Source of the DNA: Botryllus schlosseri
Lineage: Eukaryota
Reading direction: 5' to 3'
Length of the DNA stretch: 64,000 nucleotides
NCBI GenBank assembly: GCA_051294905.1
Contig: CM119371.1
Location: 9,674,001 to 9,738,000, forward strand
Each line of letters opens with the position of its first letter. Position 1 is the first letter of the stretch. The notes below the pieces were generated by a model. It was not told the origin of the DNA. It ran no database searches and saw nothing but the letters and a program-made list of their open reading frames with translations. Both the position numbers and the translations under genes were made by a program. Shown one piece after another: positions 3,745 to 12,542 of the stretch.

Positions 3745-4690
3745 GGTTACCCTTACTCCCTACCCTAATCCAACGACACCCCAACCTTGATTATAATTAG
3801 TAACCCTAACTTTAAAACTCACCCCAACCCGGACAACCCTACTCCATCTTAACATTTCAATACTTTAACAAGCCTAACCAACCCCAAACCCTAATTTGAA
3901 GATGCCCAAACCCAGGAGTCACCAACACGCCGTAAAAGGATAAATATTTTATAGTAATATGTAAAACTATACTAATATTTGTTGACGAAATTCACTCATG
4001 AACATAAATATTTTTTCGCGCTTCGCGCGACTACAGAACGTTTACATGTGGCTATTTACGACATAACTACTAACGATTTCGGTGCGCATAGTAAGCCAAT
4101 ATGCGTAAGTCGACTAGTTCGGAGTGTACCGGCATTGGACAGGAACAGTATGACGTGGGTATTTGGCCGCAGCTAGTTTGTCACAACTAACCACGCGACC
4201 GCAGGCTACATGAGTAATCGAAATGCGGCCGTGAATAGCAAAAATGTTAGCCACCCCTATTTTAGCGGCTACAGAGTGTTGTCAGGTATCGTGTACAGCT
4301 CATAGCTCAAAATATAATGAAATTGATGATCATGATACTTTTTGTTGTATTTGTGTTTGTTCAATAAAACATTAGTTCTTTTGTGGTGACTATAACCGTC
4401 GCCCATGTTAGAGAGCAAAGCATTGCAATAACGTAGAGTTATCAGACGTGGATGTTGAACTGCGTTGCCTACTTTTATCTCGATATTGATAGCATGCGGC
4501 CCGCGGATTCTAGGAAATTGAAAAAGTGACCCGCGACCCATTTTGAGTTGGCGACCCCTGCCCTAACCCTAAATTCTACTACACCGAACCTAATCCTGAA
4601 CCCAATCCGATTTTATGTGACTTTAACCAAACCCCTACCCCCAACCCTAATTTTAGGACAACTCAACCGCAACCTAATCCCGGACGCCAT
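3745..4690. repeat. Degenerate (CCCTAA)-like repeat tract, split by a hAT MITE
   Basis: Many ccctaa/cctaac/cccaac units on both sides of 3913-4560. Confidence 0.65.
3913..4560. mobile_element. hAT (Charlie-type) MITE
   Basis: Ends caggagtcaccaac / gttggcgacccctg; 8-bp TSD cccaaacc/ccctaacc (1 mismatch). Confidence 0.8.
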
Positions 4691-5737
4691 AAATTTCAAC
4701 ATGTTCATGGTGGGATCTGATTTGATTCGTGATGTTGATACATATGTGGAAAGGAAAATACACTAGACTAGATCAAATTTTCCGTTTCAATGAATTCACA
4801 TACACCGGTTGTAATTCAACTTATAGCATCTTCAGCCAGTAAATATGAAAAAAGAAGTCATTTCTATCCAACTCTAATGCACCTATACAAGACAAATATT
4901 TATTATAACCATACCTATATGCTAACTGCAATTTCATATTTCTATAATTCTAACATCAAATACCTCCTTAGGTGCTCGCGTAAACAGCATTTTATAAGAC
5001 ACAATGTGCTGTTAACAAATTTACATTGCTATAGTTGAAGAAATTCCAAAGTGCCAACGTGCCAAACTCATCATTCCGGTGCCAACCAGCATGAAAATGT
5101 GCCAAAATTCCGTAATTTGTATTCTAAATGCGTCAATTGGCAACACTGGTAACAATTATTCTCTCTAGCCACCGGGCACTTCTGGTTGCGAAATCACCGT
5201 GCACGACTCCGGATTTTGGCATGCTCAAAGTCTAAGTCCAACATTTTTTCTCAGAATCACAGAACGGATCCAACGAAAATAACCCACAATCCGGGTCCTG
5301 TCCAAAGTTCATATCTGCCGTGAAGCTGCGGTCTAGTGCATTTTTTTGCTCTCCGCACGATTTAACTCGAATTCATAGTTATTGCTTTGTGTATAGTCTG
5401 AATTTCATATTTGAGAATAGTCTCATAGCCAGTCTTAACCTTCCATGCCATCAAACTATCCGTTGGGATAACTAGCATTCTGGTTGCATTTTGTGACATG
5501 ATGATAAGGGAACGCGAAATTTTCCATTATCAAAAAGGGGGGTGCGTCTAAAAAGTTTGAGAATCACTGTACTAGATGCGCATCCAGTTTATTACCAGTT
5601 TATTTGAGATTGCTTTCTGCCAATACTGACTAACTGAGATTAAGCAGTTGATAATTACTTTAACAACCCCCTATTATGGATTGAATGATGGTTTACACTT
5701 TACAGTGTCGTCACAGCTAATAGGAATTTCAATGAAG

Positions 5738-6003
5738 TGCTATGTTCTTTGGTCTTGTTTGAACAATAACTCAATACGACGAGGTTGCAATAAGAAATCA
5801 GTATATTGTACAGCAGAATAACTATCAGACAGGCGACACGATCCAGAGTGCAGTTAAATGAAAAGACCACGAGACAACAGAACACAGGGTATAAATCCAA
5901 GCACGACACACAAGGAAATAATGATTGGAGTTAATTACTAGTCCTATAGAAATTAGGAGACACTTAGGAAACAACACTGAAACGTAAATGCACGAACATA
6001 ACA
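5738..6003 (-). repeat. 3' LTR
   Basis: Direct repeat of 9410-9675; preceded on the minus strand by the polypurine tract aggggaggac (about 6004-6013). Confidence 0.95.
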
Positions 6004-6196
6004 GTCCTCCCCTGTAAGTTAGAGGGTTGCCCACATGTACGTAGGTCTATAGAAATCGGTGGGTTTCCTATTCCTAAGAGGATAACGTCTACCCGACGTA
6101 CAGGCAGGACTAGCTGCAGGACCTTGTGCCCTGTTCCTAACCAATGGTTGCTCAGCTTGCGACTGCGGAGGCTGAGCAACTTCCTGTGTGGCTGTA

Positions 6197-9100
6197 TTAT
6201 TTTGGGACAGGTGAAATCAAGCGTGGTTGAAGTTGGTTTTTGTGCCTTCTCCAATACCCATGATCTGTTTTTATAATGTACACAACACGCCCCAGTATTT
6301 CCGTCACCACGCCAGCAACCCACTTTGGTCCGCTTCGGTAACTGCGAGCGTAAACCGAGGAACCAATCTCGAAATGAGTGACTGATTGTCTAGGCCAGGG
6401 GTTCTCAGCCGTTCTTTGCCCGTGGCCCATTTTCCGGTTTGAAAATGTTCTGTGGCCCACCTCATATACTAGAGTCATACTAGTCCTGTTCAAGACGTGG
6501 TCATCGCTGGCGCCGATATGCCTATTTCTCTAAAATATGCGCTTTTTTCTCTTACTGATCATTACAACTGTAGACCTTAAAAGTAATGAAATCGCGCGAA
6601 GCGCGACGAAAATTTTCAAGTTGAGTAAATCTCCTTATACAAACAAACGACCAACGAAATTTGGACCCTTTGAGCTCCTCCCAATTGGAAGTTTTAGGTG
6701 CGGCAGTTACGGTCCTGGTAGATCGTATAACTCTTGTGTACCGCTGTTCCACTCACGTCGCGAAACCCAATTGTCGAATCCCCGCATCCACTGTGTGATT
6801 GCGGTTTTACTTCCACTATGGTGCGGATTGGGGCTGGGCCAGCTTCAAACAATTCGTTGGTGAAAGGGATACTGCACAGATGTGGAGAAAGAATATTTCA
6901 ATGTTCAAGCTGTACAATGTACATATAGTATGTGCTGTATCCACTGAAGTTACGATGTCAGAACATTTATTTCAATGGTACAATCATTTCATGTGACTCT
7001 TACATTATGTACAATGATTTCAAGGCCGGAAATTTTAAACCGACTTGAACCATTAATGTGCTGCTCTTAATCCTCAATACATTATGATTCGTTGCGGTGG
7101 TGCCGTATACTTCGATAGGAAGTTGAATTGGTGATAAATTGCGATTATGGCTTTTTTTATATTACAATAACGACCTGCCAAGGTACCGTAAATCTACATT
7201 GAATACACGTCTGTCCTAGTTTATTGCACAATATTTTCAACGGCATACGACATACGACCCTGCTGGATACTTGGTCGCTTCAGCACTAACATCGAGTTAA
7301 TATATAGTCGAAATTATTTTCGTTGGCGTAAGTTGTAGCCGAGGGATAAAAGTATCCGTTTCCCCTCCTATTTTCGACTTGTAGATTGTGACTCCATACG
7401 TTCCAATACGTCCCATCAGAGTTAAATGAAAAACTTAAGGTAGCCTACATATAATTTGATAATATGAATATATTTTCGAGCGAATAACATAACAAATATA
7501 ACCAAATTTTCACTATAGTTCTACAATATTACAAATAGCTCTGTGGCCCACCTCAAATGCTCCTGTGGCCCACCAGTGGGCCATGACCCACCCTTTGAGA
7601 ACCCCTGGTCTAGGCGTAACGGGTTTCGATTTATCGAAGGGCGAGCACAAACTTAACAAATTGCGCAGCTGCCGACCATGTAAAATCTCGGCAGGCGTTT
7701 TCCAGTCTATGCCCGGGTGCGGTGCACATCGGTACGTAGCGAGAAGTGTTTGGAGCGCGAAGTTGAGATCTTTTCCCCCGTCGCAATTTTTTATTAATCC
7801 AGCTTTTAAAGTCTGGACAAAACGCTCCGCTTCCCCGCTCGAGGCAGGATGAAAAGACGGTAATATGATATGGCTAATTGCCAAATTAGAGCAAAACGTA
7901 TCGAATTCATTCGATGTGAATTGCGGCCCACCATCCGTGACAATTGTTACGGGCAAGCCTTCGATAGAGAAGACTTCCCTCAAAGCGTTGACCACACACA
8001 AGGTTGTGGTAGAACCGACATTCATTACTTTAACGAAAGGATATTTCGAATGCGCATCGACGATGACAAGAAATATTTTATTGTTTATTGGACCTGCGAA
8101 GTCCAAGTGAATCCGTTCAAAGCTTTCAGACGTTTTGGGCCATTCGCGATACTGACGATCAGGCGCTTTCATTACTTTGCGGCAAGCGTCGGAACTCTTG
8201 ACGAGATTTTCAATGTCGCGATTAATGGAAGGCCATGCGATGTAGCGCCGATCCATCTGCTTCATTTTCGCGATACCCCAATGTCCTTCGTGCAACAATG
8301 ATAAGACTCGCGAACGAAGTGACTGCGGAATTACTACGCGCTGAAAACCATCAATATTGAGCATGACTATGTCTTCGTGCAGAGAAAGCGAATGTTTGCG
8401 AGTGGAAAACCAAGAAAAATCATCAATGTGCGTCTTTGGATTCCAATTACCATGAGTGACAGATAATTTTACTAGTTTCATGGTTTTGTCTTTCAGCGTC
8501 GCGTCGCGAATTTCATTGCGAGTTAACGGTAAGCCATCGAATGCCATGTTAATAGCGTAAACGATCTCCGCGTTTTCACGAATTTCCAGTTCGTCAAACT
8601 CAGGGTCTGGACCCTTTGGTAGGCGAGATAAACCGTCGGCGTTTCCGTGCTGATTAGTCGGTTTATAGCGAAGATCGTATTGATAAGCCATGAGCGTTAG
8701 TGCCCATCGCTGTAAGCGTTGCGCTGTAATCACGGGAATTTTCTTGTCCGGCGAGAAAATAGCTAAAAGCGGTTTGTGGTCCGTTACGAGCGTAAATTTT
8801 CTACCATACAAGAATTGACGAAATTTAGTGACTCCGTAAATGATTGACAGAGCTTCCTTCTCGATTTGAGAGTAGGATTTTTGCGAATCAGAAAGCGTTT
8901 TCAATGCGTGCGCGATCGGTCTCTCTTCGCCATTGTGCTCCATTGAGAGGACAGCGCCGATTCCGAATTGAGAAGCGTCAGTTGACAAAATGAGCTGCTT
9001 GTTTACATCATAATAAGCTAACTGCGTAGCGTCGATAACGTCGTTTTTGAGAATGCGAAAAGCTGCGTCACAGTCCGTATTCCAAATGAATTTCGCGTCT

Positions 9101-9367
9101 TTTTGAAGAAAACGGTACAAGGCAGCGGCTTTATTCGTTAAATTAGGAATAAACGCGCGATAATAATTGACTTTGCCCAGGAATGCCTGTAGCTGGCGAA
9201 CATCCTGAGGTTTAGGCAACTGTTTGATTGCTTCAACGGATTTCTGAGACGGGCGTTTGCCGTCCTTGTCGATTATATGACCAAGATACTCGATACTACT
9301 TTTGAAAAATTCACATTTAGCGAAGTTGACGGTGAAACCGTATTCGGTGAGGCGCTCAAAGACCACG
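6197..9367 (-). pseudogene. pol: Truncated Gypsy pol (RT C-terminus, RNase H, integrase), split by hAT insertion
   Basis: KCEFF..IEYLGHII (RT end), TDASQFGIGAVL / YSQIEKEALSI / TDHKPL / NADGLSRLP (RNase H), HEGHWG and HLDFAGP / TDGGPQF / GEAERFV (integrase). Removing 6396-7607 plus one TSD rejoins PVTPR-QSVTHFEIG...RRHKNQLQPR in frame. gag, protease and the RT YxDD region are absent. Confidence 0.95.
6396..7607. mobile_element. hAT (Charlie-type) element inserted in Gypsy integrase
   Basis: TIR caggggttctca / tgagaacccctg; perfect TSD gtctaggc (6388-6395, 7608-7615). Confidence 0.95.
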
Positions 9368-9407
9368 CCGAATGGAGGCGTGGGTTCGAATCCCACTTCT
9401 GACACCA
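9368..9407 (-). promoter_or_regulatory. Primer-binding site complementary to tRNA-Leu 3' end (extended, 40 nt)
   Basis: Plus strand reads ccgaatggaggcgtgggttcgaatcccacttctgacacca = part of the variable arm, T-arm, acceptor stem and CCA of a eukaryotic tRNA-Leu (CAA-type as recalled). Confidence 0.92.
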
Positions 9408-9409
9408 AT

Positions 9410-9675
9410 TGTTATGTTCTTTGGTCTTGTTTGAACAATAACTCAATACGACGAGGTTGCAATAAGAAATCAGTATATTGTACAGCAGAATAACTATCAG
9501 ACAGTCGACACGATCCAGAGTGCAGTTGAATGAAAAGACCACGAGTCAACAGAACACAGGGTATAAATACAAGCACGACACACAAGGAAATAATGATTGG
9601 AGTTAATTACTAGTCCTATAGAAATTAGGAGACACGTAGGAAACAACACTGAAACGTAAATGCACGAACATAACA
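9410..9675 (-). repeat. 5' LTR
   Basis: Direct repeat of 5738-6003; followed on the minus strand after 2 nt by the TGG-starting PBS. Confidence 0.95.
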
Positions 9676-12542
9676 TGAAGGATATTGAAAAACATGGGGC
9701 GGGAACTTAAAAAAGCTTGAAATTACATTTTTAAACGACACTTGCGACAAAAAAGGCGGGAAACATGTTTTACAGTGGAATATGGTATAGGAACTATCAA
9801 AAAATCGGACATACTAAATGTCTGTTACATAGTGTTATTATTATCACTTTGCAACACTATTTTCGTTGACTTCGATCTGACAGTTGGTTTTGACTAACTT
9901 TAGGGCGCTGAATTCAAATATGACTAGGCTTTTCTCTTTCAGATTTGGGGGTTAGGCACCTGTCACATATTGTCTCATAATCCGCATAAAAGTACCACTT
10001 TTAATATTTTGTGTTTGTTACAGAAAACGTTTCAACAGCCAGCAGAAGAAAGTAACTCAATATTCCAGAAATAAACATCTATACTTCTGTATTTGGTTAA
10101 TTTATTGTCATTGCTTCTGCAAAACAAATAAATCGCTAGCTTTAGGGCACAGATTTATGCTAATTATTCTTAAGATAGTGGGTTGCCTTGCTTGATTCTC
10201 AAGCAATAGTCGGCTGACATATGTAAGCTCTATAATCTAATCTGGTATCAGTCCCCAATCACCTTCAGATACTGAGTGAAACTAATCCATGCTTATAGCT
10301 GACCACGCAATATTTTCCGGGAAATTAGGGAAGTGGCTATGCCGAAATGCCTCGTATCTGAGATTGACCGACAAAAACGCTCATTTGTGATGAGCTGTAG
10401 AATTTATGGAGTAACAAATGCACCAGCTTTAACGTTTGTGATGTCAGGCGAGTAAACATCAAAGTGGGGCTATCCATTGGAGCAGTGCTTTTCAACCTTT
10501 TTGAGCTCCGTTTGCATTTTATTGGTAAAACAGAGTATTCGAAAGTACATTCTAAAACCGTGGCTCCTAACCAAGTTTCTTTTCCAGCGCCAGCTTTCAA
10601 AAAGTTCCTGGGTCTGACGCCCCCCTACTTTAAGGACTAGTAAAAACAATGGTTAAGTGTGCGAAATCTGATTTCGGGTTGGGACTTAACTATTAGACCA
10701 CTCGGTTAATTAACGGTATAATTGTATCTGCTATTTACGGGATCAAATCCAGGTTGTTATACCAACAATCGCGTAAGGCCTAGGACCTCGTGACATTCGG
10801 TCAGAGGAAGTTAATTGTATTGGGTATAGTTTTATTGCTTCATTTCACTACTAAATGAGCTGAAAATGTGGTAGACATTTGCTCACATTAAATTTAGTAG
10901 GGCACCAAGCTCTTAACTTTAACGTGAGTATCATCCTTTATGACACGATGAAGAAATATTCTGACGATTTAATTTTGAAACTCTCAAATACAAGCATATT
11001 TGGTTGATCAGTTTGGCCAAAAAGCTTCAAAACATTTTTAATGTACCAAGGGCATCACTCTCAAAAGTTGTACAGTACCGTGACTTTTCGATTTCGACAC
11101 GCAGTGCGCTGCAGGATACGGTGCATAGTTCCAAACATTTTGTGTAAATAACCCGAGCTATTAGAGCTACAAATATTTTTGCGCCGCCAAAAAACACTGT
11201 TTTAAAACATTCTACCTGTAATTGTGGAACGTCACATGTTCGCTACTTCTATGACGTCATCATGTTGTTTTCCTTTCGCCTGGTGTTTATAACCCGTTAT
11301 TTTGACAAATTATCCCCAGCACTAAAACAATTTTATTCAAATATTTGAAAATGTGATTTTTTACGTCCTACGCGTGAATAGTACAACAGTAAATTACATT
11401 TACACGATGCTTGTGAAATGCCAGTCCGCTCGGTGCCGTCAAGTAAGGCGTACTTGCAAGTTATACCCGGAATACCCCTTTCAATAATGCTGCGCCTCGT
11501 GGCGTCATCAAAAACTTCCGACCCAGTTTTTAAGTTATACCTTGTCGAAAAGTCAAAGCAGAATTAACAGAAAGTTTCTAATTTGAATCTCAGTGTGTGC
11601 TGTGCAAGGAATTGCGTGAGGTGAGATCGTTCCCAGCGTGCCACACCATGTGTAAATCTTAAGAAGTTTTGGGTATTTTTACTATATTTTATTGACCTTG
11701 CTTACTTTGCTGATGTACAGCTAATTTTGTACACCACATAATCTATAGTAATAGAGTATAGATGTGTAGTCAGATATGTAATGTCAAAGGCGCCGAGTTA
11801 CGGGGTGGCGGCCACCCCATACAAAATGCTTAAACGCCCGCCATCTGTCAATTAGCGAGTCCGTGATATACCGTAAATGCCAACTATTTACCATTTACCG
11901 ATACGCGTGCCAATTATTGAATACGCACCTTCGTCGGCGACGACGAACTAGTGCTTAAAATGCTTCAATAAATTGTAATCCATGATTAGTAATCATGAAA
12001 ATACAATCGAAGCGAACTCGTTTACGACGTCAATTTCGACATGCTTGCGCCGAGAAACGCCATCGCCTCTCTTGACCAAACGAGCTAATTCACGTTCTAC
12101 TTATTAAATTGTATTTGGACGCATATTCCTTCACAAAATTATTAATGAGTTAGTTTCGTGAAAGTCTCTTTAATTGGGTCGCGAAATATGACAGTGTGTT
12201 TGTGCATGCCTGCGAATTTAAAGTCATTACTGTGCAAAGGGCGCATATTCATTACTCTATCAAGACTTTGCCAACTTTTATCGGGGAATACAGATATGCA
12301 GCTCAAGTGTCGTTGTATGAGCAAACAATTGTCGCGATGTCAGACTCGATCCCCCATTGTGCTATACGAAATTTGAGGAACTACTGGTTAGATGTGCACT
12401 TTCTCGTTCGCTATTATCTGTAGGCTACTAATTCTGGTCTGCTTTATACACTCGTATTCCCTCCATGTCACTTATCGGTGTTTGATTTACTATTATTACT
12501 GTGCATTGTGCATTGCACGGCGTTGAATTACGTAGTCAAATG

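Follow-up and report, generated by a model that had tools for sequence, protein, structure and literature searches.

We analysed a stretch of 64,000 nt from the Botryllus schlosseri assembly GCA_051294905.1 (CM119371.1, positions 9,674,001-9,738,000; the whole stretch is called the window below), which holds on its minus strand a copy of a long terminal repeat (LTR) retrotransposon of the Ty3/Gypsy type. Close to its 5' LTR stands a stretch complementary to mature tRNA-Leu(CAA) at its 3' end. There the element is broken off, and 5 nt behind the tRNA-derived part it resumes near the end of its reverse transcriptase (RT) domain. Fusions of this kind recur at 52 distinct junctions in the genome. 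We consider it very probable that the locus is an integrated, 5'-deleted Ty3/Gypsy-type copy that originated from an error late in reverse transcription. The element is composed of the following parts, listed from its 5' to its 3' side.

9676..9680, minus strand: 5'-side target site duplication (TSD) CTTCA; the same pentamer stands at 5733-5737.
9410..9675, minus strand: 5' LTR of 266 nt, TG...CA, TGTTATGTT...AACATAACA, a direct repeat of the 3' LTR.
9408..9409, minus strand: 2-nt spacer AT between LTR and primer site, present in all copies of this LTR family (family 1), normal and aberrant.
9368..9407, minus strand: 40-nt complement of the mature tRNA-Leu(CAA) 3' end, beginning with TGG, from comparison with host tRNA genes.
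9363..9367, minus strand: 5-nt filler CGTGG, from comparison with four full-length copies.
7608..9362, minus strand: pol remnant with the last ~33 RT residues, RNase H, and the zinc-binding and core parts of integrase (Pfam).
6396..7607, strand not assigned: nested 1212-bp hAT-like non-autonomous DNA transposon, from its terminal inverted repeats (TIRs) and an 8-bp duplication.
6016..6395, minus strand: end of the integrase open reading frame and 3' untranslated part, aligned together with the 3' LTR to positions 4298-4951 of the full-length copy L099.
6004..6015, minus strand: polypurine tract region ACAGGGGAGGAC; the same motif precedes the 3' LTR of other copies.
5738..6003, minus strand: 3' LTR, a direct repeat of the 5' LTR.
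5733..5737, minus strand: 3'-side TSD CTTCA, read from the sequence.

The two LTRs differ from each other at 6 of 266 positions. An open frame beginning at 9362 with ..FERLTEYGFTVNFAKCEFF runs through RNase H and integrase, and a Pfam search of the remnant gave, in this order, RVT_1 (profile positions 173-205 only), RT_RNaseH, Integrase_H2C2 and rve. Four family copies of about 4.8 kb (L097-L100) share 96-97% identity with the internal part, which begins at position 2551 of L099, directly after the RT core (..IDDIIVTG..DHFRNLSLL / ..IDDIIVTGIDERDHFRNLSLL), with about 2.1 kb comprising leader, gag, protease and RT core absent. Traits of Ty3/Gypsy elements (Metaviridae) found here are the TG...CA LTRs with a short TSD, the order RT-RNase H-integrase, and a tRNA primer site together with a polypurine tract. 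The full-length copy L098 shows the same Pfam order (RVT_1, RT_RNaseH, Integrase_H2C2, rve), while the 550 residues before its RT gave no Pfam family at E<=0.001. An earlier note on this DNA, made from its letters and without database searches, had described a copy with both LTRs and the 5-bp TSD intact from which gag, protease and the RT core are missing; this description holds, and the leader is gone as well. Taken singly, the window locus is an ordinary dead copy.

Read on the plus strand, positions 9368-9404 are identical at 37 of 37 nt to the 3' exon of the 14 host tRNA-Leu(CAA) gene copies examined, and positions 9405-9407 read CCA. This triplet is encoded by none of the 14 genes, in which the 3' exon is followed by CCT, AAA, AAG, CGT, CAC, CAT, ATT, TAA or TCG; the presence of a CCA that is not gene-encoded indicates that the 40 nt were copied from the mature tRNA. 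The match to the mature 3' end thus comprises 40 of 40 nt, CCA included and in the register of a primer site, and spans the CCA, the discriminator, the 3' strand of the acceptor stem, the complete T arm and, within the long variable arm, the loop together with the 3' strand. Within the window the 40-mer occurs a single time, even with up to 3 mismatches allowed. The earlier note had recognized a mature tRNA-Leu 3' end including CCA that reaches into the variable arm, and had set a host match beyond 18 nt as a test; with 37 of 37 gene-encoded nt plus CCA, both are answered in its favor.

The host tRNA-Leu(CAA) genes carry an intron after position 37, as detected by ARAGORN with introns allowed. 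Default ARAGORN found no tRNA in the window; these settings also missed the intron-bearing tRNA-Leu(CAA) genes. The identity of the tRNA was taken from the sequence itself, with CAA in the anticodon loop and the intron after position 37. Even with introns allowed, ARAGORN mislabels some tRNA-Leu(CAA)-type copies (as Arg or SeC) although their exon sequences agree and only the introns differ, because the intron is misplaced. At least 6 intron-bearing genes of this type are clustered within about 17 kb at G000:C4:19767301-19786000 (L049, L084-L086).

We screened the genome with a 32-nt stretch of the tRNA copy, allowing up to one mismatch, and inspected all 74 matches. Fifteen are tRNA-Leu(CAA)-type genes, three are tRNA-Leu(CAG) genes, and 56 are LTR-adjacent copies starting with TGG, which correspond to 52 distinct junctions after removal of duplicated loci. 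The fusion event is therefore recurrent and not unique to the window copy. The window's own LTR family accounts for 41 junctions and a second LTR family, whose LTR ends in ..AAGAAACA directly before TGG, for 9; two belong elsewhere. In the second family, copies of 36-49 nt of tRNA-Leu(CAA) are fused to differing sequences (L034, L037, L043, L046, L065, L069, L071, L075 and L076). L022 and L027 (G000:C13:14564551-14567847 and 15107727-15111023) are one deleted element with the same flanks and TSD, 0.54 Mb apart on one contig, and represent either a segmental duplication or an assembly duplicate; the same applies to the pairs L063/L091 and L040/L041.

The length of the tRNA copy varies within narrow limits. 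In family 1 we found lengths of 30 nt (once, in a mutated copy), 35 (2), 36 (1), 37 (4), 38 (2), 39 (6), 40 (6), 41 (6), 42 (7), 43 (2), 44 (1), 48 (2) and 50 nt (once, made up of 49 nt plus a chance match), and in the other 11 junctions lengths of 36, 41-43, 46 and, three times, 49 nt. Two classes of end points can be distinguished, one at 35-44 nt in the variable arm and one at 48-49 nt just before G37. No tRNA copy extends past the base before G37 (nt 49-50), and those reaching nt 49 stop where the 3' exon begins and contain nothing of the intron. Among the best 40 of 1387 LTR matches, all end at the LTR, at a normal primer site or in the long form, and none in between.

Normal members of family 1 provide the comparison. 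The family is abundant, with at least 40 copies represented by the best 40 of the 1387 candidates, which were scored. Besides two LTRs and a leader, L097-L100 each have a long gag-pol frame that includes RVT_1, RNase H and integrase; none of these frames is free of interruptions, and the four copies served as coordinate rulers only. At all 42 canonical 5' ends (those of L097-L100 and 38 further ones, a sample and not a census) a 20-nt primer site that differs from the tRNA at one position comes after the LTR and the AT spacer, and the leader comes next. Normal copies are thus complementary to tRNA-Leu(CAA) plus CCA over 13 perfect nt, or over 20 nt with one mismatch, starting 2 nt past the LTR. 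At position 14, the mismatched one, 42 of 42 normal 5' ends carry C (C14), where a copy of the tRNA would give G (G14). The query for normal 5' ends carried C14 itself; a G variant, differing at one position in 100, would still rank among the matches. The relatives of replication-competent type are thus without the insert and have the short C14 site in 42 of 42 cases, as the earlier note had required of full-length copies, and since none of these 42 has the long form, it is not a trait of the family. At the 52 aberrant junctions, by contrast, position 14 is G in 50 cases, among them the window copy, A in 2 and C in none. The occurrence of G or A, and never C, indicates that the primer sites of the aberrant copies were copied from the tRNA and not from the element.

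The sequences entered behind the tRNA copy differ from junction to junction. With the full-length copies as reference, 23 of the 41 family-1 junctions lead into the element in direct orientation and 8 in inverted orientation, and 10 are unmatched. The direct landing sites correspond to positions 488, 602, 875, 1040, 1737, 1745, 1816, 2028, 2130, 2227, 2254, 2551 (the window), 3321, 3356, 3502, 3684, 3819, 3913, 3976, 4092, 4147 and 4181 of L099, with one further site in U5. The inverted junctions involve pieces of the LTR, the gag region or the integrase region, and some revert to direct orientation after 58-100 nt. At the joints themselves there is microhomology of 1-6 nt (8 in one ambiguous case), a blunt transition, or a filler of 1-5 nt. 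Three other deleted copies with two LTRs were checked (L017, L020 and L022); their LTRs are 97.3-99.6% identical and their 5-bp TSDs read ATACT, GGTTG and GTGGT. Two LTRs and 5-bp TSDs mark the checked copies as products of integrase and not of later genomic rearrangements.

The junction in the window is single-copy: among the best 40 of the 1387 LTR matches only the window spans it, and no other of the 52 junctions maps to L099 position 2551. It has therefore founded no LARD- or TRIM-like subfamily, and the suggestion that the copy might be the founder of a non-autonomous one has to be given up. Two other statements of the earlier note need correction in detail. It had placed the tRNA copy next to the 5' LTR, and the two do adjoin, with the AT spacer between them; it had also let the sequence jump straight from the tRNA into the end of RT, and the RT end is indeed entered, but by way of the 5-nt filler. 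The microhomology between variable arm and pol that had been considered was not found at this junction when compared with the four full-length copies. The filler CGTGG matches neither the next bases of the tRNA nor the element. It completes a 7-bp inverted repeat, CCACGCC/GGCGTGG (9383-9377/9369-9363), which is the minimum-energy DNA fold of the 45-mer, with an unexceptional energy (z -1.3 vs shuffles). The junction of L045 carries CGTG at the same place. An origin of CGTGG by fold-back would fit this pattern, which is suggestive but no more.

Several loci show further arrangements. In L066 (G000:C12:8667775-8668606) a 44-nt tRNA copy with G14 is followed by 27 nt without match, by 11 nt of an LTR end and then by AT, a normal C14 primer site and the leader, so that the normal site stands 38 nt beyond the tRNA copy; in this case the landing site of the over-long strong-stop DNA was upstream of the primer site. 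L003/L038 (G000:C2:38163211-38166517) and L061 (G000:C9:24821439-24822270) consist of head-to-head LTRs with only a 37-38-nt tRNA copy between them, and the inverted arm of L003 extends through the polypurine tract into internal sequence, giving a large palindromic product. L047 is inverted for 58 nt and then direct. At G000:C7:14313848-14318083 (L005/L006/L054/L055) we found a tandem array LTR-internal-LTR-internal-LTR of ~938-bp units that share LTRs; it derives from one deleted derivative with a 43-nt tRNA copy and an inverted piece of the gag region. L042 (G000:C3:37845974-37849005, near locus position 1500, minus strand) is a solo LTR with a tRNA copy of ~35-41 nt and no element behind it; the direct repeat around it (TCATTTCAATATGAA) is at least 15 bp long and takes the place of a 5-bp TSD, and the unit looks like strong-stop-like DNA that was inserted by a route other than integrase.

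The recurrence, the 52 differing junctions, and the LTR pairs with 5-bp TSDs are what an aberrant transfer of strong-stop DNA followed by integration predicts. Plus-strand strong-stop DNA, primed at the polypurine tract, would copy the LTR and then the tRNA-Leu(CAA) primer still present on the minus strand; that the tRNA complement stands on the element's plus strand is explicable only if plus-strand DNA copied the primer attached to the minus strand. In the normal cycle synthesis stops within the primer site; in the case of the window it would have passed this stop and run 40 nt into the tRNA, up to the variable arm. This read-through may reflect an m1A58 that was missing or was ignored. The resulting tRNA-derived 3' end would have had no complement at the end of the minus strand, and may then have folded back over 5 nt, with its terminal GG pairing with the CC of ..CACGCC.. 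and copying back yielding CGTGG. The end so extended would have been linked, with no homology involved, to minus-strand DNA at the RT end, and the product (LTR-tRNA copy-RT end-RNase H-integrase-LTR) would have been inserted by the element's integrase with a 5-bp duplication. A minus-strand template at the switch would lead to a direct deletion, as in the window, and a plus-sense template to an inversion. The lack of any aberrant copy with C14 implies that tRNA-derived DNA served as template for the two strands of the primer site, which would fit a junction formed with a minus strand that lacked a primer-site copy of its own. The sequence of over-long strong-stop DNA, mis-transfer and integration put forward in the earlier note is thus supported by 52 differing junctions and by the 5-bp TSDs of the copies checked.

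A mechanism of this kind is already documented in HIV-1. A recent report (Commun Biol 2025, PMC12657518) describes defective proviruses in which the deletion junction contains a tRNA(Lys3) insert of 7-54 nt, interpreted as deferred second-strand transfer; the set comprises one sequence of that study and 43 from GenBank, 44 in total, pooled over many patients. As in Botryllus, the 5' LTR and the primer site are intact, the site continues into the primer tRNA past the normal stop, and the insert marks the deletion junction with internal viral sequence downstream. The interpretation given there is also the same, namely read-through of the stop followed by strand ends that are not complementary. 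The window copy shows the corresponding traits, with a tRNA insert in register with CCA, located exactly at the internal deletion, and intact LTRs. The inserts of 35-49 nt found here compare with the 7-54 nt of HIV-1. Whereas the proviruses belong to a human retrovirus in somatic cells, the 52 junctions belong to Ty3/Gypsy copies fixed in the germline of one genome. Two LTR families, a tRNA-Leu(CAA) primer, many inverted products and a built-in primer-site mismatch further set the present case apart.

A review (J Biol Chem 2026, PMC13191261) names m1A58 as the main strong-stop of HIV-1 and lists minor products that end at psi55, m5U54 or position 37; only products ending at m1A58, psi55 or m5U54 can proceed. 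The minor products resemble the present ones in reading past A58 and in having a second stop beside modified base 37, and those reading that far are described there as unable to complete normal transfer. They are biochemical products, obtained in vitro or in cells mutant for modification enzymes, whereas ours are deduced from integrated fossils, and the main end-point zone found here lies in a long variable arm, a part that is absent from the type I tRNA(Lys3).

For Ty1 and Ty3 the rule is that strong-stop DNA copied from the tRNA is not used for normal transfer. The C14 in 42 of 42 normal copies agrees with this rule, as its retention is expected if tRNA-templated strong-stop DNA is a dead end; here the rule is approached through copies in an animal genome and not by a genetic experiment. 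Alternatively, C14 could be retained because copying of the tRNA normally ends short of 14 nt. The aberrant copies resemble a dead-end molecule that was rescued in rare cases.

As to the end points, a study of human tRNA modification signals (PMC5066629) shows m1A58, m1G37 and m2,2G26 in every human tRNA-Leu isodecoder, m1G37 acting as a stop. On the strength of these human data, which may not hold for the host, the 48-49-nt class fits a block at m1G37. For tRNA-Leu(CAA) the same study gives no modification signal in the variable arm, and m3C47d is reported in human for the CAG isodecoders only. We tried m3C in the variable loop as a cause of the 35-44-nt ends and rejected it, as the modification is reported in human for no other isodecoders and the host loop, GAAT, has no C. 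The 35-44-nt zone coincides with the hairpin of the variable arm, and at exactly 42 nt the DNA copy of this hairpin is able to fold on itself; structure-induced stalling or release there would be the likeliest cause.

The main rival to structure-induced stalling is that the primer was not a whole tRNA but a 3' fragment of tRNA-Leu(CAA), cut in the anticodon loop to leave the 3' half or cut at the base of the variable arm, and that synthesis came to the fragment's 5' end, ran off and jumped, so that the end points would be cleavage sites and not stalls. Reverse transcriptases do jump at template ends, and short fillers and microhomologies of the kind seen here are typical of such jumping. The ends cluster at 35-44 nt and at 48-49 nt, the second cluster falling on the exon boundary at anticodon-loop position 37/38, and the variable arm of tRNA-Leu(CAA) is not known to us to carry a hard-stop modification. 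However, the ends of the 35-44-nt class are spread over a broad zone instead of falling at one sharp point, and the 49-nt class is explained equally well by m1G37, a documented stop in human tRNA-Leu (PMC5066629). We regard fragment priming as unlikely, if clearly the strongest of the alternatives.

Host end-joining could have ligated a strong-stop piece of LTR plus tRNA to a 3' partial cDNA of the element before integration, the junction then being a repair scar. Fillers, microhomologies of 0-6 nt and inverted segments are typical of this process too, and the solo LTR and tRNA unit of L042 with its repeat of at least 15 bp shows that entry without integrase is possible. The tRNA-derived tail, however, would be single-stranded or an RNA:DNA hybrid and as such a poor substrate for end-joining, the products checked have two LTRs and 5-bp TSDs as ordinary integrase products do, and products with several switches, such as L047, are more simply accounted for by serial template switching. 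This course of events seems to us highly improbable. That the long match is a family or subfamily trait, or was acquired by gene conversion from a tRNA gene, with the stretch from gag to RT lost in a later ordinary deletion, could appeal to the 56 places that share it, but it is next to inconceivable given that the match is missing in all 42 normal 5' ends, that each long copy joins a different sequence exactly where the tRNA stretch ends, that CCA is present without being gene-encoded, and that L066 holds a long G14 tRNA copy as well as a normal C14 site with leader.

For the aberrant transfer of over-long strong-stop DNA itself, a number of observations weigh on the other side. The census is biased, as its query required at least 34 nt of tRNA copy, and the apparent absence of copies of 21-33 nt comes solely from the 40 scored LTR matches. 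The 10 of 41 family-1 junctions left unmatched enter sequence that corresponds to none of the four reference copies, and at seven junctions there are longer unassigned stretches of 7-57 nt, some of which may reflect divergence from these reference copies. The suggested fold-back of CGTGG would depend on a match of 5 nt in a hairpin of unremarkable energy, and the tRNA-derived DNA ends in general fold no better than shuffled sequence (z -1.3 to -1.6). We know of no hard-stop modification that matches the 35-44-nt cluster, and the modification signals used here come from human tRNA-Leu and may not be those of the host. Finally, there may exist a tRNA-Leu isodecoder with a compensated T stem that matches the normal primer site perfectly.

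An LTR element containing tRNA-derived sequence has a parallel in the Helenus TRIMs (Kojima 2024, PMC10886601), in which a tRNA-like part lies inside the LTR, is thought to serve as a pol III promoter, and belongs to elements that form families. The tRNA piece in Botryllus lies outside the LTR, in primer-site register and antisense, covers tRNA positions ~45-76 only and is a one-off scar. An identity as a Helenus-type TRIM is ruled out by its position outside the LTR and its antisense orientation to the element. Separate from the tRNA fusion, the nested transposon in the window has TIRs CAGGGGTTCTC.../...GAGAACCCCTG and an 8-bp TSD, GCCTAGAC, at 7615-7608 and 6395-6388. It interrupts the end of integrase, where the alignment to the full-length copies breaks with an 8-nt overlap, and is a later insertion. 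Going by the length of its 8-bp TSD, it may be of hAT type.

In the literature searched, we did not come across junctions of this kind in the LTR retrotransposons of any cellular genome, which is weak evidence of absence given that subscription journals and supplements were little covered. Against the background of HIV-1, the wider pattern of 52 junctions in two families with an internal marker is a clear natural example of the mechanism. The mismatch of the primer site is this marker, separating tRNA-templated from element-templated sequence, and it provides indirect evidence on which strong-stop molecule an animal Ty3/Gypsy element normally uses. The combination of an LTR, a primer site running on into the tRNA and a breakpoint is a signature for one source of 5'-deleted and inverted copies of LTR elements, and for annotation it is a warning that such tRNA pieces are neither tRNA pseudogenes nor heads of SINEs.

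Work on where plus-strand strong-stop synthesis ends on the primer tRNA has dealt almost exclusively with HIV-1 and the yeast Ty elements, and one genome here offers 52 independent integrated products of the failure of this step. It is quite possible that the genome is a natural record of dead-end plus-strand strong-stop DNAs of two animal LTR retrotransposon families, which would extend the Ty1/Ty3 rule to a metazoan Ty3/Gypsy element and make the 52 end points a map of RT stops in vivo. If this is true, the result would be a stop map on a type II primer tRNA, made up of a zone at the variable-arm hairpin and a single stop ahead of G37, and such maps would be readable from other genomes without bench work.

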